Assembly (NCBI GenBank): GCA_965116925.1
Contig: OZ220744.1
Coordinates: 3,392,001 to 3,456,000 of the forward strand
Length of the DNA stretch: 64,000 nucleotides
Direction: 5' to 3'
Origin: Candidatus Poribacteria bacterium
GTDB taxonomy: Bacteria; Poribacteria; WGA-4E; PCPOR2b
The position numbers and the translations under genes are program-made. Below the pieces are notes generated by a model that made no database searches, had not been told where the DNA came from, and saw nothing but the letters and a program-made list of their open reading frames with translations. This document shows positions 33,006-53,131 of the stretch, piece after piece (positions within the stretch are counted from its first letter, which is position 1; each line of letters opens with the position of its first letter).

Positions 33006-33515
33006 TGCTGTTGTCTGAATCGCGGATAAGGATGCGTGAAACGTGAAACGTGATGCGTGACAGATTGTAATGTATAAAGTTCATCAGATCTGTCTCATTA
33101 AATTGTCTGAATCCGGATTTTCAGAATCGAAGGATAAACAGGATAAGAAAGGGAGCGTCCAAAAATCCATGAGTGCTAGGGTCGGGAAGACGACGAAACT
33201 GTCTGAATCGCGGATTAAGAGGATTACACAGATTGCGCGGATAAGAGCGCGTGAAACGTGATGCGTGACAGATTGTAATGTATAGGGTTCATTAGTTCAA
33301 TGAACCAACATAGCCCCAGCGGGGCGATATGTATATAGAAAGGCAATACGCCTAATCCCCGCGCTCCAGCGGAGCGCAATGTATAGAATTCATCAATTCG
33401 ATGCACCAAAGTAGTAGGCATACTCCGTATGCCGTAACCACAGTTAATGAACCAATGAACCAACGTAGCTCCAGCGGGGCACCATGTATATAGAATCCTA
33501 GCTTGAATAAAATGA

Positions 33516-35906: not shown

Positions 35907-38900
35907 ATGTCAAACCGTAACACCCGAATCCGGGATAACCATGACCGAGGAACGGTCGGCGATTTTCTGGAAGCCAACATTAAGGACGATGCATCGCTCT
36001 CGGTGGTGTCGGCGTACTTCACGATCCACGCCTTTGAAGCCCTCAAAGAGCGTCTGTGGAAAATTGACGGACTGCGATTCCTGTTCGGTGAGCCCGACTT
36101 TATCAAAAATCTCGACGCAAGGGACACCGATCCGAAAGCCTTCAAAATTGAGGACGAGGGTTTGCAGCTTGACAAGCCGCTTCAACAGAGACCGATTGCT
36201 AAAGAATGCGCTGAGTGGATAAAAAAGAAGGTGGAGATTAAGTCAACCCGGCAATCGAATCTACTCCACGGGAAGATGTATCATATCGGCAACAACGACG
36301 AGGAAAAAGCCATCATGGGCAGTTCCAATTTTACCGTGCAGGGACTCGGATTGAGTCAGTCGAACAGTAACATTGAGCTCAATCTTGAGGTGGAGGACTC
36401 CCAAGACCGTCGAGACCTGAAAGCGTGGTTTGATGATGTCTGGAATGACAATGAACGGGTCGAAGATGTAAAGAAAAAGGTAATTGCTAGGTTAGAGAAG
36501 CTGGGGGACGATCAGGCACCAGAGTTCATCTATTACAAGACACTCTACGAGCTGTTCCGGGACGACTTAGAAGCCCGAATGAACAACGAGCAGAAATTAG
36601 AAGACACGCACCTGTACGACACCAAAATCTGGGATAAATTGTACGACTTCCAGAAAGATGGCGTCAAAAGCGTTATCGCCCGTCTGCTACGGCATAACGG
36701 CTGCATCCTCGCCGATAGCGTGGGATTGGGCAAAACCTACACGGCATTGGCGGTTATCAAGTTCTTTGAATTGAGAAATGAGCGTGTCTTAGTGTTGTGT
36801 CCCAAAAAGTTACGCGAAAACTGGGCGTTGTATCCAGTGCATTACAACCAGCGCAGCAATCCTTTCGAGGACGACAAATTCGGCTACTCGCTTCTATCGC
36901 ATACCGACCTATCCCGTTACAGCGGCGACACCGACGGCACTGATTTGGCAGGCTTTAATTGGAGCAATTTTGACTTGGTGGTGATCGACGAATCGCACAA
37001 CTTCCGCAACGACACCAAACCGACCCTTGATGACGCCGGTAATATCACCCGCCACAGTCGCTACTCGCGGTTGTTGGAAGAGGTTATCAAGGAAGGTGCC
37101 CAAACGAAGGTGTTGATGCTTTCAGCGACGCCGGTGAACACCTCACTCATTGACCTGCGAAATCAGATCTACCTGATGACCGGAAAGCGTGAAGAGACTT
37201 TCCGGGAAAGCTTAGGAATCGGTAATATCCGCGCTTTGCTAGGGCAGGCACAAAGGGAGTTTAAGGCATGGGAAGACGATAAAGACAGTGGTAGAGACAA
37301 ATTGAAATTGCTGACTAAATTGGGGGCTGATTTTTTCCGATTACTCGGTGGTGTGTCTATTGCCCGTTCTCGGCGGCACATTGAAAATTTCTACGCCGAT
37401 GAAATAGGGAGAATTGGGGAGTTTCCCGAACAACTGAAACCGGAAAACCATCACCCATTGACCGACCTGACCGGCGCGCTCTCTTATAAATACTTGGCGG
37501 ATCAGATAGAGAAATTCTCCCTGTCCGTTTATACGCCATCCAGTTACGTCATCAGCGAGGCAGCAAAACAGCGACTGGCAAAAGAGAAACAGGACTTCCG
37601 TTTCAATCAGTTAGACCGTGAGAAATTCCTGATTGGGATGATGCAGACCAACTTTCTCAAGCGTTTGGAGAGCTCCGCACACTCCCTCACAGAAACGCTT
37701 GAACGCACAATCGGCAAAATTGACGACTTACTGGAAAAGATTGATCGCTACGAACAGAATCAGCAGACGCCGCAAGCGGGGTCCGAGGTGCTGCTAGAGA
37801 ACGACATCCTACCGGAGGACGACGAAGACGATGAGGAGTTTCTGGTAAATAAGGCGCGCTACCCCTATCACCTCCGGGAATTGGATTGTGTCTGCTGGAA
37901 AGAAGATCTCATAAAGGACAGAGAGACGTTGAGCGAGGCGTGGGAAAGCGTCAAAGCAATTACGCCGGAGCGGGATGGCAAACTTCAAGCGATTAAGGCG
38001 CATATTCGGGAGAAGGCAGAACACCCACCGACCGACAAGGACGGGGAGACCAACCGCAAGCTGCTGGTGTTCACCACCTTCAAGGACACGGCGGAGTACC
38101 TCTATGATAACCTGTCGGATCTGGCGGCGGAACTGAACCTGAATATGGCGATGGTCTCCGGTGACGTGACGCGAACCCAATCCCGCCCAAACAACTTCAA
38201 CGCCATCCTGACCAATTTCGCACCGCGAGCACGCGGGCGCACTGACAACGATGGCGATGAAATCGATCTGCTAATCGCCACCGATTGCATATCGGAGGGA
38301 CAGAACCTACAGGATTGCGACACGGTGTTGAACTACGACATCCACTGGAATCCGGTGCGTATCATCCAACGCTTTGGACGCATTGACCGCATCGGCAGCC
38401 GCAACAAGTCAGTGCGAATGATTAACTATTGGCCCACCGAAGATATGGAGGTCTACCTGCGCTTGCAAAGCCGTGTCGAGGCTCGCATGGCACTTGCGGA
38501 CGCTGCAGCAACCGGCACTGATGACCCATTGAACGAATCGGCATACGAACAAGCCCAGATGGAACTGAATTTCCGTAATCAACAACTGAGGCAGCTGCGC
38601 GAGGAGGTGCTAGACTTCGATGACCTCTCCGATGGCGTTGTGCTGAGCGATTTTACGCTCGATTACTTCTTTACCCAATTGTTGCGGTATCTGGAAAAGA
38701 ACAAAAAGGAGTTGGAAGCGACCCCCAACGGCGTGTATGCGGTCACCCACGATGCAGACCGTCCGATGGAAAGAGGGGTTATCTTTTTTCTCCGCCAACG
38801 GAACGCCAGTACGGATATACAGAGAAAAACAGCCAGCCCGATCCACCCTTTTTATGGGGTCTATATCCGCAACACTGGTGACATCCGCTACGGTTGTGCA

Positions 38901-39206
38901 AACACCCGACAGGTGCTGGATCTGTTTGAATCGGCGGCTGTCGGCAAGACTCAACCGTTGCATAACCTATGCGTCCAATTTGACAGCGAAACCAAAAATG
39001 GCAAGAAGATGGGACGGTATAACGGACTGTTGAAAGCGGTTATTGACCACATCAGCAGGGCGCATACGACGACACAAACCAACAATATGGGACTTAGTGG
39101 CTCACGCGACTTTGCACTCCCTCTGGAATCCGAAACCCCCAGAGATACCAGTGATTTTGAGTTGGTGACATGGCTAGTGATCACCACCCCACAGAGAAAA
39201 AGCTGA
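35907..39206 (+). CDS. PLD-nuclease-like domain fused to SNF2 helicase
   Basis: HGKMY...GSSNFT; LADSVGLGKT, DESH, LSATP, SEGQNLQ and WNPVRIIQRFGRIDR motifs. Confidence 0.92.
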   Translation: MSNRNTRIRDNHDRGTVGDFLEANIKDDASLSVVSAYFTIHAFEALKERLWKIDGLRFLFGEPDFIKNLDARDTDPKAFKIEDEGLQLDKPLQQRPIAKECAEWIKKKVEIKSTRQSNLLHGKMYHIGNNDEEKAIMGSSNFTVQGLGLSQSNSNIELNLEVEDSQDRRDLKAWFDDVWNDNERVEDVKKKVIARLEKLGDDQAPEFIYYKTLYELFRDDLEARMNNEQKLEDTHLYDTKIWDKLYDFQKDGVKSVIARLLRHNGCILADSVGLGKTYTALAVIKFFELRNERVLVLCPKKLRENWALYPVHYNQRSNPFEDDKFGYSLLSHTDLSRYSGDTDGTDLAGFNWSNFDLVVIDESHNFRNDTKPTLDDAGNITRHSRYSRLLEEVIKEGAQTKVLMLSATPVNTSLIDLRNQIYLMTGKREETFRESLGIGNIRALLGQAQREFKAWEDDKDSGRDKLKLLTKLGADFFRLLGGVSIARSRRHIENFYADEIGRIGEFPEQLKPENHHPLTDLTGALSYKYLADQIEKFSLSVYTPSSYVISEAAKQRLAKEKQDFRFNQLDREKFLIGMMQTNFLKRLESSAHSLTETLERTIGKIDDLLEKIDRYEQNQQTPQAGSEVLLENDILPEDDEDDEEFLVNKARYPYHLRELDCVCWKEDLIKDRETLSEAWESVKAITPERDGKLQAIKAHIREKAEHPPTDKDGETNRKLLVFTTFKDTAEYLYDNLSDLAAELNLNMAMVSGDVTRTQSRPNNFNAILTNFAPRARGRTDNDGDEIDLLIATDCISEGQNLQDCDTVLNYDIHWNPVRIIQRFGRIDRIGSRNKSVRMINYWPTEDMEVYLRLQSRVEARMALADAAATGTDDPLNESAYEQAQMELNFRNQQLRQLREEVLDFDDLSDGVVLSDFTLDYFFTQLLRYLEKNKKELEATPNGVYAVTHDADRPMERGVIFFLRQRNASTDIQRKTASPIHPFYGVYIRNTGDIRYGCANTRQVLDLFESAAVGKTQPLHNLCVQFDSETKNGKKMGRYNGLLKAVIDHISRAHTTTQTNNMGLSGSRDFALPLESETPRDTSDFELVTWLVITTPQRKS

Positions 39207-39493: not shown

Positions 39494-42400
39494 ATGAGCA
39501 ACGAAGAAATCAGAAAGAAGGAAGAAATCGAATTCGCCTTGGCGGCAATGATTGACGACGATTTTTTGGAAACCTCAAAGGATCTGTTGGAGGTTTTGGG
39601 CTACTGTAGCGACCGGACTGCGAACTTCCCGGTAACAGCGGATCACTTTATTTGGCGGTTTCCAGCTCCAAACGAAAACACCGACACAGAGCGGGAATTC
39701 CGCCAGAACGTGGAATCGGTCGAGCTGGTGTTTCAAGTCAGCAGCACGGAAATTGCCCCCGACGATCAGCCAATGCTGTTTGAGGTGCCTACCTTTGATG
39801 AGGGATATGTAAGGACTTTCACCTTCTTTGCAATCGAATTGAAAGATTCGGACTACCCACGAGGCAAATATGCCCAATTCACACGGGAGGTCAACAAGCG
39901 GTTTATAATGCCTGTTGTGGTATTCTTTCGCGTTAAAGACCGTTTGACCATCGGCTTTGTCGGGCGCCGTCAACACAGGCGTGACCCAGACCGCGATGTG
40001 TTAGAACAGGTTACGCTGATTAAGGACATTCGTCTGGATGATCCACACCGGGCGCATCTGGATATCCTGTTTGAACTCTCATTAGAGGAATGCGCGAAGT
40101 GGATGAGGGACCACAACGAACAGGAAAACTTCGATGGTTTGCTTGCGGCGTGGCTTGCCCGACTGGACACCGAAGAGCTCAACAAGAAATTCTACCGGGA
40201 ACTGTTCGCTTGGTTTGAATGGGCGGTTGCTGAAGGGCAATTCCCCACAGATAAAAATCGCACCCTGAAGCCGGAGGAGCATGTCATCCGCTTAATCACA
40301 CGCCTCCTGTTCGTCTGGTTTATCAAAGAGAAGGGACTAATTGCAGGTGAACTGTTCAATGAGGCGCGAATTTCCCCCTTGCTGAAGGACTACGACCGGG
40401 ACACCGGCAATTCCTACTACCGCGCTGTGCTGCAAAACCTGTTTTTTGCCACGCTGAACACCGAGATAGGAAAACGTAAGTTTAGCGAAGGGGGAAACCC
40501 ACGCCATCGCAATTTCTCACTGTATCGCTACAAGGATCAGATAACTGACCCCGATAAACTGCTGGGGCTATTTGAGAAAACGCCATTTATCAACGGGGGA
40601 TTGTTCGATTGCCTCGACAGCGAGGAGGCAACACGAGATGGCGGCTACCGTATCGACTGCTTTTCTGATGTGGATTACGGTAAATTGAGAGTTCCCAACC
40701 GTCTCTTTTTTGACAAGGAGCATGGTTTGATTCCTCTCCTAGAACACTACAAATTCACCGTTGAGGAAAATACACCGATAGAGCAGGAGGTCGCGTTAGA
40801 TCCAGAACTACTCGGCAAGGTGTTTGAAAATCTGCTCGCTGCATATAACCCCGAAACCGGCGCAACAGCACGGAAACAGACCGGCTCCTACTATACCCCG
40901 CGTCCCATCGTAGACTACATGGTGGAGGAGGCGTTAGTGACGACACTAACAGAGCAGGTCTCCCCAACGCACGGAGATGCGAAGTTTTGGGAGGAACGGT
41001 TACGCTATCTGTTCGATTATGCGAAGGTGTTTGACGATGCGAGCGAATGGTTCGATAGCCGCAAAGCTGACGCGGTGGTGCGAGCAATTTCAGAACTTAA
41101 AATACTGGATCCGGCGGTCGGTTCCGGTGCGTTTCCGATGGGCGTCTTGCACAAGCTAACCCTCGCCCTGCGGCGACTTGACCCGGATAACAAACGCTGG
41201 GAAGCATTGCAAAAGGAACGTGCCGCCCAACGCGCGGCGGATGCGTTTGATACGGAAGATGATCAAACGCGACGTGAGGAACTCCTCGAAATCAACGAAA
41301 CTTTCAAACGCTACCGCGATTCGGACTTCGGACGGAAGTTATATCTGATTCAAAACAGTATCTTCGGCGTGGACATTCAATCTATCGCCTGTCAAATCGC
41401 CAAACTCCGCTTCTTCATCTCCCTTGCTATTGAGCAGGAGCCGGATAGAAGCGCAGACAACTTTGGAATCAAGCCGCTGCCGAATCTGGAGACACGGTTT
41501 ATTACAGCGAACACACTCATCGGTCTCGAAGAGGAGCGAACCCTGACAAGTCCCAAAGCGAGGGATTTAGAGCGAGAATTGGGCGAGAACCGCGAGCGGC
41601 ATTTCCACGCAACAACGCGCCCACAGAAACTGGCGTGTAAACGAGCGGACAAGAAGTTGCGGCGGGGGTTGGCGAAGGAATTAAAGGATATTGGGATGCC
41701 CCCCGATGATGCGGAGAAAATTGCCCATTGGGACCCTTACGATCAGAACGCAAGTGCGGATTGGTTTGATTCGGAATGGATGTTTGGTATCGTAGACGGG
41801 TTTGATGTGGTGATTGGGAATCCGCCGTATGTTAGCCATGATAAAATTTCCAAACAGCTTAAAACCGAAATTAAAGATCGCTATCAATCTTACGAACCCT
41901 TTGCGGATATGTACTGCTATTTCATTGAAAAAGCAATAGGGTTGCAAAATCAGCAAGGAATACTTAGCTTTATTACTTCAAATTCATATTTGAGAGCGGA
42001 ATATGGTGCCCCAATCCGAAAGCTGCTGAAAAATGAGAATATGCTGCTTAGAGTGTTAAATATTGAAGATTCACAGGTTTTCGAGAGTGTGATTGTTAAT
42101 GTCGCAATAATAGTGTCTCGTAAATCGACAAATCTCACTGATGATTTTTGTATTGTTGTCAATTCGCCATTTTCAGGTAATAGTTTTGAGGATTTTATAA
42201 AAAGCAATGGTTTTCATTATCCTCAAGCGTACTTTAATTCAAAGTCGTGGAACCTTATAGAACCAGAACTTGTTGAACTTCAAAGGAAATTGGAATCATC
42301 AGGGAAAACTCTCGAACAGCTGAGAACAAAAATTAGACTTGGTATTGCGACCGGCAGCAATGAAGCCTTTCTGATAGGTGAAGATAAGAAACGAGAACTT

Positions 42401-43069
42401 TGTGAAAGAAACCCTGTCAATGCTGAAATCATAAAACCCATTTTGAGAGGTAGAGATATTTTTCGCTACAGTTACACATCAGCGGGGCAGTATATTTTGC
42501 TGGCTAAAAATGGAGTCAATGTGCAAAGAGATTATCCTGATATATACGAACATTTAGAGTCATTCGGGGATAGGTTCAGGAATCGTGGGGCGCAAGGACA
42601 ACACTGGACGAATCTAAGGGCGTGCTCATTCTATGATGACTTCAAAAAAGAAAAGATTGTGTGGATTGAATTGACGGATTCAGGGCGGTTTGCCCTTTGC
42701 AATGAGGAAATCTATCTACTAAATTCAGCGTATTTTTTACTACCTCCGTCAGGCATAGAGTCAAAATTTCTGCTAGGTGTCCTAAATTCAAGCACAATTC
42801 GCTTTTACTTGGGTCTTATTGCAGAAACGAGTGGGATGGGAACAAGCCGTTGGATTAACAATTATGTGAAAGAATTTCCGATACCGGAGGCTACCTGTGA
42901 GCAACAAGCCCTGATTATTGATCTTGTCGATCAAATCCTTGATGCCAAACACACCGATCCAGACGCCGATGTATCCGAACTTGAAAATGAGATTGATCAG
43001 ATAGTATACTTATTATACGGTCTTACCCGTGAAGAAATCGCTATTGTGGAGGGAGCGGAAAATGTCTGA
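39494..43069 (+). CDS. Type IIG/Eco57I-like N6-adenine methyltransferase with C-terminal TRD
   Basis: GSYYTP, DPAVGSGAF (motif I) and GNPPY (motif IV); TaqI_C-like tail. Confidence 0.92.
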   Translation: MSNEEIRKKEEIEFALAAMIDDDFLETSKDLLEVLGYCSDRTANFPVTADHFIWRFPAPNENTDTEREFRQNVESVELVFQVSSTEIAPDDQPMLFEVPTFDEGYVRTFTFFAIELKDSDYPRGKYAQFTREVNKRFIMPVVVFFRVKDRLTIGFVGRRQHRRDPDRDVLEQVTLIKDIRLDDPHRAHLDILFELSLEECAKWMRDHNEQENFDGLLAAWLARLDTEELNKKFYRELFAWFEWAVAEGQFPTDKNRTLKPEEHVIRLITRLLFVWFIKEKGLIAGELFNEARISPLLKDYDRDTGNSYYRAVLQNLFFATLNTEIGKRKFSEGGNPRHRNFSLYRYKDQITDPDKLLGLFEKTPFINGGLFDCLDSEEATRDGGYRIDCFSDVDYGKLRVPNRLFFDKEHGLIPLLEHYKFTVEENTPIEQEVALDPELLGKVFENLLAAYNPETGATARKQTGSYYTPRPIVDYMVEEALVTTLTEQVSPTHGDAKFWEERLRYLFDYAKVFDDASEWFDSRKADAVVRAISELKILDPAVGSGAFPMGVLHKLTLALRRLDPDNKRWEALQKERAAQRAADAFDTEDDQTRREELLEINETFKRYRDSDFGRKLYLIQNSIFGVDIQSIACQIAKLRFFISLAIEQEPDRSADNFGIKPLPNLETRFITANTLIGLEEERTLTSPKARDLERELGENRERHFHATTRPQKLACKRADKKLRRGLAKELKDIGMPPDDAEKIAHWDPYDQNASADWFDSEWMFGIVDGFDVVIGNPPYVSHDKISKQLKTEIKDRYQSYEPFADMYCYFIEKAIGLQNQQGILSFITSNSYLRAEYGAPIRKLLKNENMLLRVLNIEDSQVFESVIVNVAIIVSRKSTNLTDDFCIVVNSPFSGNSFEDFIKSNGFHYPQAYFNSKSWNLIEPELVELQRKLESSGKTLEQLRTKIRLGIATGSNEAFLIGEDKKRELCERNPVNAEIIKPILRGRDIFRYSYTSAGQYILLAKNGVNVQRDYPDIYEHLESFGDRFRNRGAQGQHWTNLRACSFYDDFKKEKIVWIELTDSGRFALCNEEIYLLNSAYFLLPPSGIESKFLLGVLNSSTIRFYLGLIAETSGMGTSRWINNYVKEFPIPEATCEQQALIIDLVDQILDAKHTDPDADVSELENEIDQIVYLLYGLTREEIAIVEGAENV

Positions 43070-43311
43070 ATCACGGATTATAGTAAATGTTAGAATTATT
43101 GGGACACTGTAGGAGGGTTTTCCAAACCCCGATTATACCCTCCCCTCTGATTTCACAGGCCAATCAAGAAGGTTTCCCCGCACCCTGGTCTCGGAACGGA
43201 CAAGGCAGTTCTCCTGAAATCCCTATTGGAGAAGCGTCAAATTATTTTTATTATTCACCATAAATGCCCCCTAATCCTTTAACCTATCAACTATAAAAGG
43301 AACATCTTATC

Positions 43312-43983
43312 ATGAAGGACCGAAGCTTATCTGCACTGTGGCAGGGAGGGCCATTCCAGATGAGCATAGAATACCCTCGACATATCTCACAATGTACAGT
43401 AAATGAGGCAGCTGGGATTCTTGAGGCAATTAAGATTCTTGAGGATTTTTGCAGTAATTGCCAAGAGCAAAGCATCATTTTCGATATCGCACGTCTCGGA
43501 AAAGATCAATGGTTAGATAAGCACAAGCATATACTTGAAAAAGGTAAAGATAACACAATATTTTTTGGAACAAATTTCCCAGATGCCTATCAATCACCTG
43601 GAAAATCGACAACTGGTAAAATACCCATGAAGCACCTTCTCGAAAACTTGAAGCCAAGAGGAGAATTTGAAAACCAACTGGCCAAAATGCTTATTGTATT
43701 CATATATCATCTGTGGGAGGATAATTGCCGAAATAAAATTGCTGACTCCTTATCAATATCAAAGGATCGAGTTGAATGTGATCTGATGGGAGACATTCGC
43801 AAAATAAGACACAGTATCATTCATAAGAATTCTGTTGTTTCTCAGAAGTTACCAAATAATCTCAAAATATTACCACAAATATGGAATATTCAACCGGGGC
43901 TATTGATAATTTCAGAGAATATGGTTCAGTCGCTGATGGAACAGATCAACGCCCTGCGTGTGAAAATAAAATCGGATTCATAA
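43312..43983 (+). CDS. Hypothetical AT-rich protein, possibly HEPN-like
   Basis: AAGGA RBS; helical, with an RHSIIH (Rx4H) motif. Confidence 0.6.
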   Translation: MKDRSLSALWQGGPFQMSIEYPRHISQCTVNEAAGILEAIKILEDFCSNCQEQSIIFDIARLGKDQWLDKHKHILEKGKDNTIFFGTNFPDAYQSPGKSTTGKIPMKHLLENLKPRGEFENQLAKMLIVFIYHLWEDNCRNKIADSLSISKDRVECDLMGDIRKIRHSIIHKNSVVSQKLPNNLKILPQIWNIQPGLLIISENMVQSLMEQINALRVKIKSDS

Positions 43984-44017: not shown

Positions 44018-44155
44018 CAAGTCTTCGCCGCCGGAGACACCAACCCAAACGCCGATGTATCCGAACTTGAAAAGCGGATTGATCAGATAGTATACTTGTT
44101 ATACGGTCTCACCCCTGATGAAATTGCTATTGTGGAGGAAGCGGAAAATGTCTGA
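44018..44155 (+). pseudogene. Duplicated 3' end of the methyltransferase gene
   Basis: Translates QVFAAGDTNPNADVSELEKRIDQIVYLLYGLTPDEIAIVEEAENV*, versus the methylase end QILDAKHTDPDADVSELENEIDQIVYLLYGLTREEIAIVEGAENV*. Confidence 0.9.
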
Positions 44156-44240
44156 ATCGCGGATTAAGAGGATTACGCAGATTGCGCGGATTTTTTAATC
44201 CGTGTAATCCCTGAATCTGCGATAATCTGCGATTCTGACA
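44149..44240. repeat. Family E: inverted pair of 8-9-mer arrays (TGTCTGAATCGCGGAT...ATCYGCGATTCWGACA)
   Basis: Left arms at 33012, 33104, 33200, 35763, 39278, 43063, 44149 and 49086. Right arms end near 19877, 44240, 44325, 46007, 48235, 48454, 49636, 49878, 51616 and 52612. Confidence 0.85.
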
Positions 44241-44362
44241 GTAAAGAAATCGCTATAGTGAAGAAGCCGCCTCATCACCCCAAAATCCTGAGAATCCTTG
44301 AATTCCGTAAATCCCGATTCAGACAATGAGAAGATGATCATCGTAACGGAAAAATCATAAGT

Positions 44363-45064
44363 ATGAAAAATCAACCCAATCCCAAAGACGACCTAAACGC
44401 GATTTTGGAAATCCTTCGTGAGATAGCAGAAAAATCAGAGGGTGGTAACTACATCTATCGTGGCGAACCTGACATTTATGACAGAGTGTCGTCAAGCCTT
44501 TGGCGTGTGTGTAAAAGAAAAATGAAGACAGAGAACTTTGATATACAGGCTATTGAAGATTCAATACTGGAGTCGGTAAAAAACTATACTTCCGAACAAG
44601 AGGAGATTGAAATTTGGGCTGAACTCCAACACTATGGGGGGCACACCAATCTTATAGACTTTACAACCGATAACCACATAGCCCTCTTCTTTGCCTGCGA
44701 TCGCTTCTTTGACAAACCTGGCAGAGTCATTTTTTTGGGAGAGGAAGCGCAGAACGAGAATCAAGTTAAGGAAAAACCTCAGAACCCACGAAACCGCATC
44801 ATAGCTCAGAAGAGTATATTCATTCGACCACCTACAGGAGTTGTTGAGCCAGACGATGTAATCACTATCCCGGCACATCTCAAACAACCCATATTAGGCT
44901 ACTTGAACAAACATCACGGTATATCTACGGAAACCATCTACAACGACCTCCATGGGTTTATTAGAAATCAGGACATGCACCAGACTGTCTCTATAGCGTT
45001 TTATGTTGGGTCAATCCAGCAATACACAGGAGAAGCGGAGAATGCAGACACAAGCGAAACTTGA
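44363..45064 (+). CDS. FRG domain protein
   Basis: YRGE, LQHYG..T.LIDFT....ALFFAC and RIIAQKS.F motifs. Confidence 0.88.
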   Translation: MKNQPNPKDDLNAILEILREIAEKSEGGNYIYRGEPDIYDRVSSSLWRVCKRKMKTENFDIQAIEDSILESVKNYTSEQEEIEIWAELQHYGGHTNLIDFTTDNHIALFFACDRFFDKPGRVIFLGEEAQNENQVKEKPQNPRNRIIAQKSIFIRPPTGVVEPDDVITIPAHLKQPILGYLNKHHGISTETIYNDLHGFIRNQDMHQTVSIAFYVGSIQQYTGEAENADTSET

Positions 45065-45941
45065 GCATTACGATAAGGCAATTGAGCACTATAGCACAGC
45101 AATAGCATTGCAACCCAATTTTGTCATCGCCTACAACAATCGCGGCATTGCTTACGCCGATAAAGGTGAGTATGACCTTGCCATTGAAGACTTTAACACG
45201 GCAATCAAGCTGAAACCGGACTATGCGATTGGCTACAACAATCGCGGGACTGTTTACCGCATCATAGGTGAGTATGACCTTGCCATTGAAGACTGTAATA
45301 AGGCGATAGCACTCGATCCCGGTTATGCTGAACCTTATAGCAATCGTGGTGCGGCTTATCGGGAAAAAGACGAGGAGGACCGCGCGATTGCCGACTATGA
45401 CAAAGCGATAGAACTAAAACCCGATTTTGTCGAGGCATACTATAATCGCGCGATTGCTTACACCAAAAAAGGCAATTTTGATCGTGCCATCGTAGGTAAT
45501 GCCAAGACGATAGAATTGGAACGTGACCTCGTTGGGGCTTATAGCGAGCGTGGTGAAGCTTATCTCGAAAAAGGCAATTTTGACCATGCTATTGAAGATT
45601 ATACCAAAGCGATAGAACTGAAACCTGACCTTGCCGAGGCTTATAACAATCGCGGTCATGCTTATAGTAAAAAAGGCAATTTTGACCGTGCGATTAAGGA
45701 TTATACCAAAGCGATAGAACTGGAATGTGACCTTGTTGAAGCGTATAGTAATCGTGGTGAAGCGTGGCTACACCTCGGAGAATGGGAAAAAGCCAAGTCA
45801 GACTTGACGACTGCCAACGATATGGGACAGGATATCATTGGCTCATTTCAAAATGACTACGAAAACGTTGCACACTTCGAGGGTAGAAATGGGGTGAAGC
45901 TCCCGGCAGACCTCGCCGCAATGCTGACACCCCCGCGATAA
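45003..45941 (+). CDS. TPR protein, possibly the frameshifted continuation of the FRG gene
   Basis: 34-aa AYNNRG.AY..KG.YD.AI.D..KAI.L.PD repeats; overlaps the FRG ORF. Confidence 0.8.
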   Translation: MLGQSSNTQEKRRMQTQAKLEHYDKAIEHYSTAIALQPNFVIAYNNRGIAYADKGEYDLAIEDFNTAIKLKPDYAIGYNNRGTVYRIIGEYDLAIEDCNKAIALDPGYAEPYSNRGAAYREKDEEDRAIADYDKAIELKPDFVEAYYNRAIAYTKKGNFDRAIVGNAKTIELERDLVGAYSERGEAYLEKGNFDHAIEDYTKAIELKPDLAEAYNNRGHAYSKKGNFDRAIKDYTKAIELECDLVEAYSNRGEAWLHLGEWEKAKSDLTTANDMGQDIIGSFQNDYENVAHFEGRNGVKLPADLAAMLTPPR

Positions 45942-46041
45942 ACATCACCGCCGATGTTTTTTTTATCCGTGCAATCCGTTAATCCGCGACAATCCGCGAT
46001 TCAGACAGTGAAGAAATCACCATTGCGTGAGAACAAAAAGT

Positions 46042-46887
46042 ATGGCAGAAAAAGCGTCGAGCCGTGTCAAAACGCTGAATAGTTTTATCAAATGGGCAGC
46101 ACAATTCAATGACGGGCAATATCTGTTTCGGGGTGTTTCAAACGAGTCCTACGGAATAGAAGCGTCTGCCTATCGCCGCTTACCAGAAGCACAAAGAAAT
46201 AATCCGGCTCGACTCCTCCGAATCAATCAGGACTTAATAGAAAAAGCGCGTCTCCTAGGGCACGATCAGAAAAACGGGCAGCGACTTTCGGATCTGGAAC
46301 TCCTTGCAGAACTACAGCACTTCGGCGCAGCTACCTGTCTGATAGACTTTACTCGCAACGCACTAGTCGCGCTCTGGATGGCCTGCCAACAAAGTACCAC
46401 CGGGGAAGCAAACGGCAAAGTTATCGCTGTGCGTAGCGATGAATCTGCTCGGCTAGAAACGATTACTCCCAAATTGGTAACGGACGAAGATATTGATTAC
46501 TTTTTTAGGAGAGATGAACGTAGGGGATATCCACTCTACCAATGGCAACCCAAGTACCAGAACAACCGCATTATCGCCCAGCAATCCATCTTCATTTTTG
46601 GCGGTGCCCAAATTGAGACAGAGGCCGAGTGTATCATCCTAAAAAGTAGTAAGGAAGATATTCTGACATCTCTGGATAAAATATCAGGAATCACTGAAGG
46701 AAGCATCTACCCTGACTTTGACGGTTTTGCACGCCAACATGCCCATAATAAACCTTACGTTGAAGCTGACCCGGAAGACCTTATGCAACGAGGTGTTGAG
46801 GCATACCTAGAAGGTAGACTAGATGATGCTATTGACCGCTACAATGAAGTTATCTCGTTACTCGACCCGGAAGGAGATTTAGAATGA
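46042..46887 (+). CDS. FRG domain protein with C-terminal TPR-like helices
   Basis: LFRG, LQHFGAAT.LIDFT and NNRIIAQQS motifs. Confidence 0.88.
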   Translation: MAEKASSRVKTLNSFIKWAAQFNDGQYLFRGVSNESYGIEASAYRRLPEAQRNNPARLLRINQDLIEKARLLGHDQKNGQRLSDLELLAELQHFGAATCLIDFTRNALVALWMACQQSTTGEANGKVIAVRSDESARLETITPKLVTDEDIDYFFRRDERRGYPLYQWQPKYQNNRIIAQQSIFIFGGAQIETEAECIILKSSKEDILTSLDKISGITEGSIYPDFDGFARQHAHNKPYVEADPEDLMQRGVEAYLEGRLDDAIDRYNEVISLLDPEGDLE

Positions 46888-48125
46888 ATTCACAAAGTAT
46901 TGCTTCTTACCTTGAGGTCCCCTCGTTACCACCGGATAAACTTACCCTCGCTAGGGCATACTACAGTCGCGGCCTTGCCTACGACGCTAAAGGGGATTAT
47001 GACCGTGCCATCGCAGACTTTACCAAAGCGGTAAAACTTAAACCCAATGATGCCAATACCTATTACAATCGCGGTATTGCTTACTACGCTAAAGGCGATT
47101 TTATCAATGCTATTGAGGATTTGAACAAAGCGATACAACTCAAACCCAATGATGCCCAATCCTATAACAATCGCGGTATGGCTTATGAAAAAAAAGGCGA
47201 TTTTGACCGTGCTATCGCAGATTTTACCAAAGTGATAAACCTGAATCCCAATGATGCCTACGCCTATAGCAATCGCGGAAATGTTTACTACGAAAAAGGT
47301 GAATATGACCGTGCAATTGAAGACTTTAACACAGCGATACAACTCAAACCCAATATCGCCGAAGTCTACAGTAATCGCGGTAATGCTTACAACAGTAAAG
47401 AGGAATATGACCGCGCCATTGAAAACTTTAACACAGCGATACAATTCAAACCCAGTCTCGTCGAAGCCTACAGTAATCGCGGTAATGCTTACAACGGCAA
47501 AGGTGAATATGACCGCGCTATTGAAGATTACACCCAAGCGATACAGCTTAAACCCGATTATGCCCGTGCCTACAACAATCGCGGGGAGGCTTACAACGGC
47601 AAAGGTGAATATGACCGTGCAATTGAAGATTACACCCAAGCGATACAACTCAAACCCGATTTTGCCGAAGCCTATTACAGTCGCGGAGTGGCTTATTGTT
47701 ATAAAGGCGAATATGACCGCGCCATCGAAAACTTTAACATAGCGATACAACTCAAACCCGATTTTGCCGAAGCCTATTACAGTCGCGGGGAGGCTTACTA
47801 TCGCAAAGACGATTATGACCGTGCAATTGAAGGTTACACCAAAACGATACAACTCAAACCCGATTATGACCTTGCCTATTTCAGTCGTGGGGCGACTTAC
47901 TACAGCACAGGCAATTTTGACCGTGCCATTGAAGATTATAACGTAGTTATAAACCTGACCCCTGATTACGCCAGTGCCTATTTCAATCGCGGGTTGGCTT
48001 ACTACAGCAAAGGCGATTATGATCGTGCAATTGAAGATTATAAGACGGCAATACAGCTAAATCCCCATGATACCCAAGCCTATACCAATCTTAGGATTGC
48101 TTACGAAAAAAAAGAGAAGTCATAA
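46884..48125 (+). CDS. TPR protein with about 11 highly similar repeats
   Basis: 102-nt tandem repeats; ATGA overlap with the FRG gene. Confidence 0.92.
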   Translation: MNSQSIASYLEVPSLPPDKLTLARAYYSRGLAYDAKGDYDRAIADFTKAVKLKPNDANTYYNRGIAYYAKGDFINAIEDLNKAIQLKPNDAQSYNNRGMAYEKKGDFDRAIADFTKVINLNPNDAYAYSNRGNVYYEKGEYDRAIEDFNTAIQLKPNIAEVYSNRGNAYNSKEEYDRAIENFNTAIQFKPSLVEAYSNRGNAYNGKGEYDRAIEDYTQAIQLKPDYARAYNNRGEAYNGKGEYDRAIEDYTQAIQLKPDFAEAYYSRGVAYCYKGEYDRAIENFNIAIQLKPDFAEAYYSRGEAYYRKDDYDRAIEGYTKTIQLKPDYDLAYFSRGATYYSTGNFDRAIEDYNVVINLTPDYASAYFNRGLAYYSKGDYDRAIEDYKTAIQLNPHDTQAYTNLRIAYEKKEKS

Positions 48126-48486
48126 CCGTGCCGTAAGCCATTATTACTAGGCTAACTCCCCAGCAATAAGCATCACCGCCGATGTTTTTTGAATCCGTGT
48201 AATCCGTTAATCCGCGCTAATCCGCGATTCAGACAATGAAGAAGATAATCACGGATTCTCAATATATCAGGCATGATCCCAATGCGACACATGTCGCCCC
48301 GCTGGGGCTTTAGGTCACAATTTGAGTTGAACAGAATCAATGGGAAATATCAAGCGTCAGAGTTGCGATTCGGAGGGTACGCCCCCTGCTTGGTTTATCA
48401 ACTAACAACTTGGGTTAATATACCAATAATCCGCGATAATCTGCGATTCAGACAACAGAGGGCAAACAGAATGAAAGAGGAACCCC

Positions 48487-48696
48487 ATGCGAAAAGCAGA
48501 CCTACAACAGCAAGCCGTTGAGTTAATCAAACAACTCTCGACGGAAAACTTGCAAGCGGGGGTTGACTATCTGACCGCTCTGCGAGACAAGGAGGAGCAG
48601 GAAGCCACCCACGAATCGGCGACCGATTTTGAAAGCGTCTTAGACGAGATAGTAAGAAAATATGATCGAGCATGGAAAACACTGGCGAAACCTTGA
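48487..48696 (+). CDS. Putative antitoxin
   Basis: Small ORF overlapping the start of a Doc-type toxin; paralog at 52645. Confidence 0.75.
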   Translation: MRKADLQQQAVELIKQLSTENLQAGVDYLTALRDKEEQEATHESATDFESVLDEIVRKYDRAWKTLAKP

Positions 48697-49064
48697 GATA
48701 TTTGACAATTTCGGAAATTCTGAGAGTTGCTGAGAAGCATGTAGGTAGCTATCAGTTGTTAAATGAAAATCAGTTACACTATGTGGTTGAAATAGTTTGT
48801 GCGAAATTGGGTGATACAGAACTGTTTCCGACCTTGCCCCAAAAGGCTGCTGTGTATGCCCATCACATTATTACTGGACACCTGTTTTCTGATGGGAATA
48901 AACGTGTCGGTCTGACCTGCGCGCTCACATTTCTGGTTTTGAATGGTTGTTCCCTTCAGCGCGACATTGAAGATTCGATTATTGAGCTTGGCTTTAAGGT
49001 TGCAGATGGGACCATCACCGATGTGGAGATAATCGCTGACCATATACAGCAATGGATTCAGTAA
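48693..49064 (+). CDS. Doc/Fic family toxin
   Basis: HLFSDGNKR Fic motif; TTG start overlapping the antitoxin stop. Confidence 0.9.
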   Translation: MRYLTISEILRVAEKHVGSYQLLNENQLHYVVEIVCAKLGDTELFPTLPQKAAVYAHHIITGHLFSDGNKRVGLTCALTFLVLNGCSLQRDIEDSIIELGFKVADGTITDVEIIADHIQQWIQ

Positions 49065-49177
49065 CAGATTGATGAGGCGGAAAACGTCTGAATCGCGGAT
49101 TAAGAGGATTACACAGATAGCGCGGATTTTTGTATCTGCGGCAACCCGCTATTCTATACCAACACAGGATACAAACA

Positions 49178-49576
49178 ATGAACGACAATCTAAAATACGG
49201 TGATATCACTGACAAGATTATCGGGGCAGCTTTTGAGGTCCATACATTTTTAGGTAACGGCTTCCAAGAAGTGATTTATCAACGAGCGTTAGCACTTGAA
49301 CTATCACGAGTGGGGTTGACATTTGGGCGTGAAGTTGAGCAAGACATTTTCTACAAAGAAGCACCAGAACCTATCGGTACACGCCGAGCGGATTTCGTAG
49401 TCGAAGGCAAGGTGTTAGTCGAGTTGAAGGCTATCTCTACATTGGAAGAGGTACACATAGCCCAGTTATTAAATTATCTGAGAGCCTATCGGTTGGAGGT
49501 CGGTTTGTTAATCAATTTCGGATCAAAAAGCATGACATTCAAAAGATTGGCTCTCTCGCAACCGAATCGCCGCTGA
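49178..49576 (+). CDS. GxxExxY family PD-(D/E)XK nuclease-like protein
   Basis: IIGAAFEVH..LG.GFQEVIY, RADFVVE..V.VELK and QLLNYL.....VGLLINFG motifs. Confidence 0.92.
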   Translation: MNDNLKYGDITDKIIGAAFEVHTFLGNGFQEVIYQRALALELSRVGLTFGREVEQDIFYKEAPEPIGTRRADFVVEGKVLVELKAISTLEEVHIAQLLNYLRAYRLEVGLLINFGSKSMTFKRLALSQPNRR

Positions 49577-49924
49577 TGTAGATAACGCCTTTAATCCGTG
49601 TAATCCGTTAATCCGCGTCAATCCGCGATTCAGACAGAGGGGGATTGTGGTGACGTATCGGGGCAAGTTGCTTTGAATTCCGATCTTATCGGGGATGCCC
49701 CTCCCACGTCCAGCGGTGCTTGTAGGTCGAGATTCACATCTCGACACCAAAGCGTCGATTTTGGAAAATCGACCTACAAAAATCTTTATCTGTTTCCCGT
49801 TTTCCGGTTATCTCGTTTTCCCGTTTTCTCTTTTTTCTCCGCGTAATCCTTAAATCCGCGTCAATCCGCGATTCAGACAAACAAATTCTAAACTTTACCG
49901 ATAAAAAAGGGGGCTATCTGTTTT

Positions 49925-50704
49925 ATGATGTGTATAACGGGTTGTGGAGGGGCAAAAAATTTGCCTCCCTATACTCACAACGTGAAGTGGGGTTATGCAG
50001 CAGAGAATGGACCGGCTGTTTGGGGGCGGCTGAGTCAGGAATACATCCTTTGCGGCGTGGGGACACACCAATCACCGATCGACATTGTGAACCCCATACC
50101 AACCGAACTGCCGTCTATCTCTTATGAGTACCACCCTGCAACGGGTGTGAACATCCACCATAACGGACATACGATTGAAGTGGCGTATCCTGAAGGCAGC
50201 GGCATCCAGATCGATGGCACCGACTATCAACTGCTCCAGTTCCATTTCCATGCACCTGGCGAACATACGGTAGACGGTAAACCGTTTGACATGGAAATGC
50301 ACCTTGTTCACGAAAGTGAAGATGGCAATTTAGCAGTCGTTGGTCTGTTAATCGAGAGTGGTCATCACCATCCCGCATTTGATCCAATCTGGGCATCTTT
50401 ACCGTCCACGCCGCTCGAAACACAGCGTATTGAGAATGTCACTGTTGATTTGCCTATGATGTTGTCGCCAAATAGACAGGTACTCGACGAATCAGTACAG
50501 GCTTTTCCCAGCACCTACCGCTACAACGGTTCACTGACGACCCCGCCGTGTTCAGAGGGAGTCAAATGGATTGTACTAACAACGCCCGTTGAGATGTCTG
50601 AATCGCAAATTGCGGCATTTAAGGCGATTATCTATGGCAACAACCGGCCGGTACAGCCACTGAATGGACGTGAACTGCTCCTTGATGCCACAGGAGTGCC
50701 GTAA
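49925..50704 (+). CDS. Alpha-class carbonic anhydrase (start uncertain)
   Basis: QSPIDI, QFHFH...EH, EMHLVH, GSLTTPPCSEGV.W and NNRPVQP motifs. Confidence 0.95.
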   Translation: MMCITGCGGAKNLPPYTHNVKWGYAAENGPAVWGRLSQEYILCGVGTHQSPIDIVNPIPTELPSISYEYHPATGVNIHHNGHTIEVAYPEGSGIQIDGTDYQLLQFHFHAPGEHTVDGKPFDMEMHLVHESEDGNLAVVGLLIESGHHHPAFDPIWASLPSTPLETQRIENVTVDLPMMLSPNRQVLDESVQAFPSTYRYNGSLTTPPCSEGVKWIVLTTPVEMSESQIAAFKAIIYGNNRPVQPLNGRELLLDATGVP

Positions 50705-51500: not shown

Positions 51501-51616
51501 ACAAATCGCCGAATCGACCTACAAAAATCGTTGTCAGTTTCCCGTTTTCCGGTTATCTCGTTCTCTCGTTTTCCTCCGTGTAATCCCTTAATCCGTGACA
51601 ATCCGCGATTCTGACA

Positions 51617-52459
51617 ATGCAGAAAGGAGATGGCTCGGTGAGTATGAAAAAAGACTTGGAATTTGATTATCAAGCGTATCTGAAGGAAAATCCGCCAGAT
51701 CTCAGCAAAATCCATCGGGGACCAGAGGCGCGTCAAAAGCGACGCGAAGCCGTTCTCCATAACAATCGTGGGGTGGCTTATGCGAACAAGGGCGATTATG
51801 ACCTTGCGGTTGAAGCGTTTACGAATGCGATAGCACTGAATCCGAACCTTGCGCTGGCGTATAGCAATCGTGGCGGTGCTTACCGCGACAAAGGGGACTA
51901 CGACCGCGCCATCGAAGATTGCAACAAAGCGATAGAGTTGAACCCTGACCTCGCTATGGCGTATAACAATCGTGGCGGTGCTCACGAGCGCAAAGGGGAT
52001 TATGACCGTGCCATCGCAGACTTGAGCAGAGCGATAGCGTTCAAACCCGATCTCGCAGAGGCTTACGGGAATCGTGGGAGTGCTTACGCGAAGGTGGGGA
52101 ATTATGACCTTGCCATCATAGACTATACCAGAGCGATAACGCTGAATTCCGATGCCGCCCAATCCTATAACAATCGCGGTGTGGCTCACTACAAAAAAGG
52201 GGATTATGACCGTGCCATCGCAGATTATACCAAAGCGATAGAACGCAAGCCCGATTTTGCCGAGGCACATTACAATCGCGCCGAAGCGTGGTTACATCTC
52301 GGAGAGTGGGAGAACGCCAAATCAAATTTAACCGTTGCCCTAGCGATGGGAGTAGACATCATCGGTGGGTTTCGTAACGAATACGCCAGCGTCCCGGACT
52401 TTGAGCGGAGAAATGGGGTGAAGCTCCCGGCAGACCTCGCCGCCATGTTGACACCCTAG
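51617..52459 (+). CDS. TPR protein (start uncertain)
   Basis: TPR repeats; C-terminal cap RNGVKLPADLAAMLTP shared with 45003..45941. Confidence 0.88.
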   Translation: MQKGDGSVSMKKDLEFDYQAYLKENPPDLSKIHRGPEARQKRREAVLHNNRGVAYANKGDYDLAVEAFTNAIALNPNLALAYSNRGGAYRDKGDYDRAIEDCNKAIELNPDLAMAYNNRGGAHERKGDYDRAIADLSRAIAFKPDLAEAYGNRGSAYAKVGNYDLAIIDYTRAITLNSDAAQSYNNRGVAHYKKGDYDRAIADYTKAIERKPDFAEAHYNRAEAWLHLGEWENAKSNLTVALAMGVDIIGGFRNEYASVPDFERRNGVKLPADLAAMLTP

Positions 52460-52644
52460 GAATAAATATTACCTCAAATAAATGAACACTTTCGCTCCCC
52501 ATGTTTGGTAGGCACTGTTTGCAACTGCGCCGATTCTGGGTGTCTCATTAATTCTGAAATCTACTATAAATCCGTGTAATCCCTTAATCCGTGATAATCC
52601 GCAATTCAGACAATAGAGAACAAACAGAACGAAAGGAGAACACC

Positions 52645-52875
52645 ATGCGAAAAGCAGATTTACAACAGCAAGCGGTTGAGTTAATCAAACAACTCTCGAT
52701 GGAAAAACTGAAAGCAGGGGTTGACTATCTGAACTACCTGCAAGATAAGGAAGCGTGGGAAGCGACTCACGAATTGGCAAGTGACCTAGAGATCGTCAAG
52801 AGTTTAGAACGCGCAGAGGCGGATGTGAAAGCGGGAAGGCTAAAACGTTGGAGCGATGTTAGACAGGACGTTTGA
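52645..52875 (+). CDS. Putative antitoxin
   Basis: AGGAG RBS; EATHEL...L.RAEADVKAGR...W tail; overlaps the RelE gene. Confidence 0.8.
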   Translation: MRKADLQQQAVELIKQLSMEKLKAGVDYLNYLQDKEAWEATHELASDLEIVKSLERAEADVKAGRLKRWSDVRQDV

Positions 52876-53131
52876 GGTACAATTCACTGATGAAGCGGCA
52901 ACGCATTACAACGCGCTTGATGCCAATATGAAGAGGCGAGTAAATGGGGCGATTGATCTGTTAGCTCAGAATCCGCTCTTTGGGCGGAACATCGTCAAGT
53001 TGAAGGGAGCGTACGCAGGACAATATAGATACCGCGTCGGAAGTTACCGTATTGTTTACAGTGTGGACACGCAACGTCAAATCTGTATCATCAAAGGTAT
53101 TTACCGACGCAGCAGAGCCTATCGCCCCTAA
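52856..53131 (+). CDS. RelE/ParE family toxin
   Basis: V.F...A, KLKG...YRYRVG.YRIVY and I..R..AY motifs. Confidence 0.9.
   Translation: MLDRTFEVQFTDEAATHYNALDANMKRRVNGAIDLLAQNPLFGRNIVKLKGAYAGQYRYRVGSYRIVYSVDTQRQICIIKGIYRRSRAYRP

Follow-up and report, generated by a model that had tools for sequence, protein, structure and literature searches.

GxxExxY genes and their repeat arms as likely drivers of mobile DNA at a poribacterial gene array

In the genome of a Candidatus Poribacteria bacterium, a gene for a small protein of the GxxExxY family lies between short inverted repeats (here called arms), and a similar pair of arms is found joined directly, with no gene between them, some 5 kb upstream. 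The question raised by this locus is whether gene and arms form a mobile unit, and whether such a unit has had a part in building the array of small gene cassettes that surrounds it. The stretch analyzed, hereafter the window, comprises 64,000 nucleotides (assembly GCA_965116925.1, contig OZ220744.1, positions 3,392,001 to 3,456,000). An earlier note on this DNA had proposed an undescribed nuclease-driven mobile repeat system, with 49086-49636 as its filled form and 44149-44240 as its empty form.

The gene, its arms and the cassette array in the window

The GxxExxY protein of the window matches PF13366 (E 2e-36, 125 bits against a cut-off of 22), the sole Pfam family that it matches, and TIGR04256 (E 3e-38, 131 bits against a cut-off of 35), and has no PADLOC match. 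Its structure model (pLDDT 91) has among its VIA-align neighbours Cas4 SSO0001 (Z 8.2, rmsd 4.2, 102 aligned), BpuSI (Z 7.9, rmsd 2.6, 95 aligned), and Hjc (Z 6.8), each of them middling when taken alone. The putative catalytic residues D72, E82, and K84 are all present, D72 and K84 being invariant and E82 occurring in more than 90% of the rows of a 36-row alignment. By its fold and its D...(D/E)xK residues the protein is a predicted PD-(D/E)XK nuclease, as the earlier note had recognized. HUH and GIY-YIG chains are absent from the 50 VIA-align rows, an absence that excludes nothing. In the table of Steczkiewicz et al. (2012; PMC3424549), the family (PF13366 PDDEXK_3, TIGR04256) is given as of unknown function with multiple transfers, and the table passage on PF13366 names no repeat, target, or mobility.

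The features around the gene are the following:

44150..44240, no strand: complete gene-less hairpin, left arm 44150-44195 plus right arm 44196-44240 (folding, alignment)
49075..49085, +: methylase-tail remnant before the left arm, about 11 nt, too short for statistics (alignment)
49086..49131, +: left arm (arm profile match, alignment)
49132..49155, +: decayed right arm completing the upstream hairpin (alignment; intact form in G022)
49178..49576, +: GxxExxY gene, 132 aa (PF13366, TIGR04256)
49561..49592, +: decayed left arm, overlapping the final GxxExxY codons (alignment)
49593..49636, +: right arm after GxxExxY (arm profile match)

Arms and open reading frame of the supposed filled form are thus in place, and the resemblance between the two sites is real: the left arms starting at 49086 and 44150 are identical at 44 of 46 positions and the right arms ending at 49636 and 44240 at 38 of 45, while the gene-less hairpin folds at -26.3 kcal/mol (z -6.55), none of 200 shuffles folding as well. 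On the other hand, the segment 49132-49155 agrees with the right arm of the gene-less hairpin at 19 of 26 positions (counted by eye), with a closer counterpart in the related genome G014 and an intact one in G022, and the segment 49561-49592 agrees with the left arm at 19 of 28 positions, being shortened and running into the right arm. Because the former is a decayed right arm and the latter a decayed left arm, GxxExxY is flanked by two direct hairpins whose gene-facing halves have decayed, and is not in the loop of a single hairpin. The left flank GCGGAAAA that the note had seen at both places is indeed common to them, and it proved to be the 3' tail of a type IIG methylase gene, reduced to the remnant of about 11 nt before 49086. 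This gene anchors the array, whose parts are:

39494..43069, +: type IIG restriction-methylase gene, array anchor (Pfam Eco57I/TaqI_C; PADLOC REase_MTase_IIG, 3e-103)
43064..43081, +: truncated left arm over the methylase stop codon (arm profile, E 0.03)
44037..44166, +: direct copy of methylase tail and arm start, 130 bp, 90% identical to 42951-43080 (blastn)
44241..44265, +: decayed downstream methylase-tail copy, beginning at the right-arm end (p 0.003 against shuffles)
44286..44325, +: right arm, AATCCTG-like variant, ahead of the first FRG gene (arm profile, E 0.013)
44363..45941, +: cassette of FRG-domain ORF 44363-45064 (Pfam) and TPR-like ORF 45003-45941
45964..46030, +: right arm 45964-46007 (arm profile), then a decayed methylase-tail copy (p 0.003)
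46027..48125, +: cassette of FRG-domain ORF 46027-46887 (Pfam) and TPR-like ORF 46884-48125
48192..48235, +: right arm (arm profile)
48427..48454, +: short right arm closing a degenerate hairpin, ahead of the toxin-antitoxin pair (arm profile)
48487..49064, +: cassette of putative antitoxin 48487-48696 (no family match) and Doc/Fic toxin 48672-49064 (family profiles)
49836..49879, +: right arm ahead of carbonic anhydrase (arm profile)
49925..50704, +: cassette of alpha-carbonic anhydrase, differing in array position in relatives (Pfam)
51575..52459, +: right arm 51575-51616 (arm profile) and TPR-like cassette 51617-52459 (ORF reading)
52569..53131, +: right arm 52569-52612 (arm profile), putative antitoxin, and ParE toxin (Pfam)

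The methylase 3' tail ends in ...EEIAIVEGAENV followed by its stop codon, a TGA that falls inside the arm start GTCTGA. Since the 130-bp tail copy precedes the hairpin at 44150 and a decayed copy follows it, this supposed empty form is a sister joint of the array and not an empty allele of 49086-49636. A strict allelic pair is accordingly ruled out, both loci being decayed copies of a unit made of methylase tail plus hairpin. Behind the right arm ending at 49636 no methylase-tail copy was detected (p 0.43). The 223-aa ORF at 43312-43983, between both tail copies, has no Pfam, NCBIfam, or PADLOC match. The TPR-like label of the FRG partner ORFs derives from 34-aa repeats with a 102-nt period; in both FRG-TPR cassettes the two ORFs overlap (45003-45064 and 46884-46887). 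Directly 5' of the type IIG gene lies a PLD-SNF2 helicase gene (35907-39206), which is found before or after the array in relatives. A second arm-jointed array is present in the same genome (G000:C1:3748700-3753000), behind an orphan methylase 3' fragment with a full hairpin of its own; its ORFs are, to judge by their motifs, presumably antitoxin-like, PIN-like, and TIR/TPR-like.

In the whole genome (6.47 Mb), a profile built from 12 arms of the window retrieves 88 arms at E<0.01, against 0 in the reversed genome, and there is a single GxxExxY gene. Nine of the 88 arms passed a hairpin filter, corresponding to about six real hairpins on inspection, and most arms are solo, embedded in mosaics with other repeats. 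Within the window (13200-63700), these other dispersed repeats comprise GGTGCGGTT...ACCGCACCTAC, ACGTGAA arrays, GTAGGTCGAGATT... palindromes, and TTATAGT...AGAATTAAT; the ACGTGAA and TTTCCCG short-period arrays may have partner genes of their own. A composite repeat of about 20 copies (for example, at C1:471932, 1276398, and 2960372) holds one arm fixed between constant flanks, which suggests the spread of a larger arm-carrying unit. Solo left-oriented arms at 33013, 33105, 33201, 35763, and 39279 lie just past gene ends, upstream of the helicase/methylase pair. A genome-wide role of arms as gene terminators was considered and rejected: a frame of at least 100 codons is closed by the TGA of only 2 of 80 arms, the other two frames combined giving 4, so that solo arms do not donate a stop codon as a rule.

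Arms, protein clades and arrays in other genomes

The association between gene and arms extends well beyond Poribacteria. From 109 homologue loci (one duplicate having been excluded earlier), three with fewer than 105 aligned residues were dropped, and among the remaining 106 the arm-end motif lies within 250 nt of the gene in 84, against 3.1 for shuffled flanks. An independent set of 82 further loci from metagenomes and viruses contains 70 with enough flank, and inverted arms were found de novo in 59 of these. The expectation of the earlier note that homologues would carry short-period inverted arms was therefore borne out, and the same arm design stands beside GxxExxY in unrelated host genes of many phyla. 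Among viral contigs, 79 candidate stretches yielded two relatives. A distant GxxExxY clade (45-50%; L027, L028, and L030) has an ATTCGTG-type array that the arm motif misses. When the nearest arms were read at 80 genome loci, the order was left-gene-right in 17, left-gene-left in 13, right-gene-left in 10, and right-gene-right in 8, with none in 15.

Arm variants co-vary with the protein clade, as the note had also anticipated. In a quick tree, several arm types occupy single branches (CTGT, 4 rows, 99; CCAG, 2 rows, 99; TCAG, 3 rows, 91), and the TCAC and TCGC types are intermixed in one large clade. The counts across genomes agree: at least three copies of the CTGT arm are peculiar to genera g5 (4/4) and g11 (10/10), and it is these genera that supplied all four genes of the CTGT clade placed in the tree; elsewhere there are one or two matches in 4 other genomes of the 61 and none in G000. 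A finer residue-to-base code (Q or M at residue 55 with T or C) was tried and discarded; in 147 of 161 loci residue 55 goes together with one letter of the arm, an association confounded with the tree, and independent pairs give a median p of 1.

The distribution of arms without the gene is also informative. An exact arm 16-mer and PF13366 were counted across the 61 genomes, the former being present in 49 and the latter in 37, in some of them weakly. The arm-richest relatives (G044 with 253 exact 16-mers, G047 with 146, G057 with 74, G052 with 66, G013 with 47, and G017 with 40) have no PF13366 match in a search that gave matches in other genomes of the same set, and for five of these genomes a profile search at E<=1, which had no positive control of its own, was likewise empty. 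Of the two findings that the note had held to be jointly fatal to its idea, homologues lacking arms were not the rule, and repeat-rich genomes lacking the gene are what these relatives represent. Neither 16-mer nor gene occurs in family f4 (0/7) or in genera g6, g9, and g15. From the arm-rich gene-less genomes and the lineages lacking both, it follows that arms and gene are coupled by lineage and not by genome. In one gene-less genome, some 56 exact 16-mers lie within 35 kb between tandem paralogous ORFs (L161-L162, G044:C2:8400-43400).

The array itself has been followed in 20 stretches, corresponding to 19 loci, around the closest GxxExxY homologues. In 13 of the 19 a methylase tail precedes the gene at a distance of no more than 12 kb; in three of the remaining six (L042-L044) the gene is at tails that, to judge by a motif, are presumably dockerin-like. 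Cassettes (FRG-TPR, antitoxin-Doc, carbonic anhydrase, GxxExxY, and others) recur in differing order with arms at their joints, nearly all of them right arms in a single orientation, and at the three loci of the closest homologues (L031-L033, 89-92% aa identity) the nearest upstream arm is a right arm, so that direct repeats flank the gene. Among 17 methylase tails in these loci (two of them the window's own), 15 carry the exact GTCTGAATC at or just past the stop codon and two carry it in decayed form; a methylase-tail copy follows 31 of 104 right arms at p<0.02. One G044 tail has an arm-less end and adjoins another repeat type. In G013, a single contig of 98% completeness without the gene, the most expanded tandem units were seen: as many as 9-10 diverged units of tail plus hairpin follow one another, each about 154 nt long and lacking cargo, with an AATCCTG-type arm and with a tail copy that begins at different codons from unit to unit.

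Of the filled/empty polymorphism that the note had suggested looking for, gene-bearing and gene-less states do occur among relatives, at a junction other than 44149-44240. After the Doc gene, GxxExxY is present in two of nine genomes (G000 and, truncated, G014) and absent with an arm in place in the other seven (G008, G009, G015, G017, G018, G019, and G022), G008 having the same decayed left arm plus right arm as that behind the window's gene. More generally, GxxExxY is patchy and often broken in relatives, some of which have two or three close copies. From the sequencing reads no persuasive excision joint or circle emerged: most of the joints in X1-X3 correspond to paralogous loci or are short-sided, and in X4 one joint skips GxxExxY with a short side of only 27 nt. 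Contigs X11 and X13 from RNA libraries cover gene and flanks evenly and therefore point to a related strain of like gene order rather than to expression. At four loci (L011-L014, from G001, G015, G012, and G007), a TPR-like stretch (262 aa in G001; L011:1498-2286, minus strand) is fused in frame ahead of GxxExxY; these fusions form one branch (99) and are composites from cassette joining.

Duplications at arm ends and their explanation

Outside the independent set, there are 45 loci in which the gene is preceded by a left arm and followed by a right arm; 11 of them were excluded because their flanks contain arm repeats. Among the remaining 34, a direct flank copy starting 0-7 nt from the right-arm end was found at p<=0.005 in 11, or 10 once the unverified L019 is set aside. 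The independent set gave 9 flagged loci of 52, with six accepted on inspection; the apparent duplications at L231, L253, and L267 are own-gene fragments or repeats and were discarded. Overall, 16 of 86 testable arm-gene-arm loci have an accepted duplication, of 23-97 nt and in seven host-gene classes, and 70 have none; at the window's own GxxExxY flanks none was detected (p 0.74). The duplication measures about 40 nt for the methylase tail, and 40-97 nt in six classes and 23 nt in one. The methylase was identified by domain scan, and the other classes are presumably, to judge by motifs, histidine-kinase, dockerin-like, Mod-like, HsdS-like, and ABC-permease-like tails and an HsdM-like start. 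In five of the seven classes the upstream copy is closed by the TGA of the left arm, and its downstream counterpart goes on into sequence that is not arm; in G061, three arm-free kinase paralogues end without arm sequence, like the downstream copy. The alleles available for comparison were arm-free paralogues and species-level relatives only. The nine cases at kinase tails may go back to a small number of events, and L059 and L061 have a downstream gene start in common. No duplicate pair is 100% identical, and therefore none is fresh. For a cut site resembling the arm hexamer, which had seemed persuasive by eye in the methylase and dockerin-like tails, the targets gave 24 matches against a null of 20.8 (P 0.07; seven events, one per class, the methylase row having a wrong left-arm start), which establishes no motif.

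Since in several phyla the arms around GxxExxY lie between two copies of the end of a neighbour gene, the gene likely drives mobile DNA that spares the host gene. This DNA seems to be undescribed, and it likely seeded the swappable gene array of the window. We start from the observed association with arms, the matching of arms to clades, the duplications that begin at arm ends, the tandems of tail plus hairpin, the shuffled cassette order, and the presence or absence of the gene at one junction. The best reading, to which we give a probability of about 0.55, is a partnership of nuclease and repeat like RAYT/REPIN or Ssn/SRM, with a PD-(D/E)XK enzyme, in which insertion duplicates a long stretch of the target and is followed by host recombination that shuffles the cassettes. 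The GxxExxY protein would probably cut or nick DNA at arms of its own type, and the unit that the arms bound would probably insert with a target duplication of 20-100 nt that keeps the host gene whole, insertions surviving where one target copy does so. In Poribacteria, the favoured target would be the conserved tail of the type IIG methylase. Once two tail-plus-hairpin units were in place, homologous recombination of the host, perhaps prompted by nicks, could add, remove, and reorder cassettes. In the window, the nuclease gene itself would be one such cassette between two direct half-decayed hairpins, with the 44150 hairpin as a sister joint, and arms would outlast the gene, as the arm-rich gene-less genomes suggest. 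The note had ascribed the building of the array to the nuclease system; arms do stand at the junctions between the reshuffled cassettes, and host recombination can account for the array, given that arms and tail copies are already there. A bolder version is put forward tentatively: GxxExxY proteins might be the mobilizing enzymes of widespread minimal elements lacking transposase, integrase, and reverse transcriptase, whose staggered cuts tens of bases apart would copy the host gene end and whose terminus would donate the stop codon, the tail-plus-hairpin units serving as docking points that build and shuffle arrays of defence genes.

The arms might, alternatively, have been spread by another factor or by recombination alone, with the array formed through ordinary recombination at the methylase tail and GxxExxY merely linked to it. 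The arm-rich genomes lacking the gene and the gene-less expansion of tail-plus-hairpin units in G013 are in accordance with this, as are the absence of residue-letter coupling in independent pairs and the published insertions with long target duplication at restriction-modification loci, described for the cases concerned without another mobile element (Furuta et al., 2010; PMC2853133). It is nevertheless rather unlikely, because the same arm design flanks GxxExxY in unrelated host genes of many phyla, the arm type switches with the protein clade (the CTGT arm, at three or more copies, being confined to the two genera with that clade), and f4, g6, g9, and g15 lack arm 16-mer and gene together. 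The duplications found in several unrelated host genes, with their starts 0-7 nt from the arm end, read as insertion scars, and a patchy, often broken gene fits a transient element better than a retained host function; both make it improbable that GxxExxY is a domesticated nuclease of the Ssn kind, which would cut arm-bearing single-stranded DNA (for example, incoming DNA), tune recombination near defence cassettes, and insert nothing, the duplications being by-products of repair. Such a role would suit the one gene facing about 90 mostly solo arms in this genome, and the layout resembles SRM-ssn-SRM, whose demonstrated activity, in the sections of the paper concerned, is cleavage of single-stranded DNA that modulates transformation (Chenal et al., 2025; PMC11893778).

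Folded hairpins at one-orientation joints between small cassettes of shuffled order would also be expected if the hairpins were sites for a separate host site-specific recombinase and GxxExxY one cassette among many. This is highly improbable, given that cassette boundaries are ragged and the duplicated tail begins at varying codons, unlike precise site-specific crossovers, that most joints have only half a hairpin, and that no integrase is found among the 11 window ORFs scanned. The partnership of nuclease and arms with insertion and later host recombination is retained as the preferred reading. It would be of significance because GxxExxY is a common family listed as of unknown function, for which the arms offer a candidate substrate and the 20-100 nt duplications a candidate product. 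If it is true, this would be the third nuclease fold paired with its own repeats, after HUH (RAYT) and GIY-YIG (Ssn), a possible origin of the long target duplications known from restriction-modification loci, and an integrase-free route by which a symbiont could build variable arrays of toxin-antitoxin, FRG, and TPR genes.

Comparison with known systems

No description of a GxxExxY-plus-arms system was found in the literature searched, supplements and most subscription journals lying outside the search. The main text of Di Nocera (2013; PMC3733652), whose supplements could list such repeats, contains neither TGAATC nor GGATT in the part consulted.

Integron cassette arrays and islands that target tRNA 3' ends have cassettes in one orientation behind an anchor and restore the end of the target gene, and the array described here resembles them in both respects. 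Unlike them, it has imprecise joints and uses many kinds of protein-gene tails as targets, and no tyrosine recombinase is found among the 11 ORFs scanned. Another known case is that of restriction-modification loci, where long variable direct repeats surround an insert without transposase or integrase, and amplification occurs via the repeats, according to the relevant sections of Furuta et al. (2010; PMC2853133). Common to both are a direct repeat of more than 30 bp around an insert of less than 20 kb and the link to restriction-modification. There, as far as those sections describe it, the insert is the restriction-modification system and has no terminal repeat family, whereas here conserved inverted arms bound the insert, which is arm-nuclease-arm or a cassette and not R plus M genes, the restriction-modification gene is the target, and other genes are targeted too.

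The layout is that of the Ssn nucleases, GIY-YIG enzymes accompanied by NTS/SRM repeats. In the sections of the paper concerned, SRMs are inverted repeats of 20-50 nt, 71% of ssn genes are flanked by an SRM, and the SRM-ssn-SRM layout is likened to an insertion sequence (Chenal et al., 2025; PMC11893778). As in that system, so far as those sections go, a small single-domain nuclease gene is flanked by its own repeat, which has many dispersed copies, and repeat variants are paired with protein variants; the gene is flanked in most homologues here as well (84/106 and 59/70). GxxExxY differs from Ssn in lacking a GIY-YIG domain, with a PD-(D/E)XK fold instead, and each arm differs from an SRM in being a tandem array of 8-9-mers, two arms forming a hairpin. 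Long target duplication is seen here, and none is reported for Ssn in the sections covered; Ssn activity has been demonstrated there (PMC11893778), whereas GxxExxY is a predicted nuclease known from sequence and model.

RAYTs, in turn, are tyrosine (IS200-like) transposases described, in the relevant parts of Bertels and Rainey (2011; PMC3116915), as present in a single copy and unable to mobilize themselves, and the REPINs are mostly doublets. The parallel drawn in the earlier note holds in that one gene coexists with many gene-less repeats, clusters lie beside the gene, and repeat flavours match gene flavours. It does not extend to the repeats' organization, arms being mostly singlets unlike REPINs, nor to the enzyme, since GxxExxY has no Y1/HUH tyrosine transposase (PF13366 is its only Pfam match, and its structural neighbours are PD-(D/E)XK). 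Unlike RAYTs as there described, GxxExxY genes also occur at many unrelated sites and in two or three close copies in some relatives. Therefore, the GxxExxY-arm system stands outside both RAYT-REPIN and Ssn-SRM by fold, and outside RAYT-REPIN also by doublet organization.
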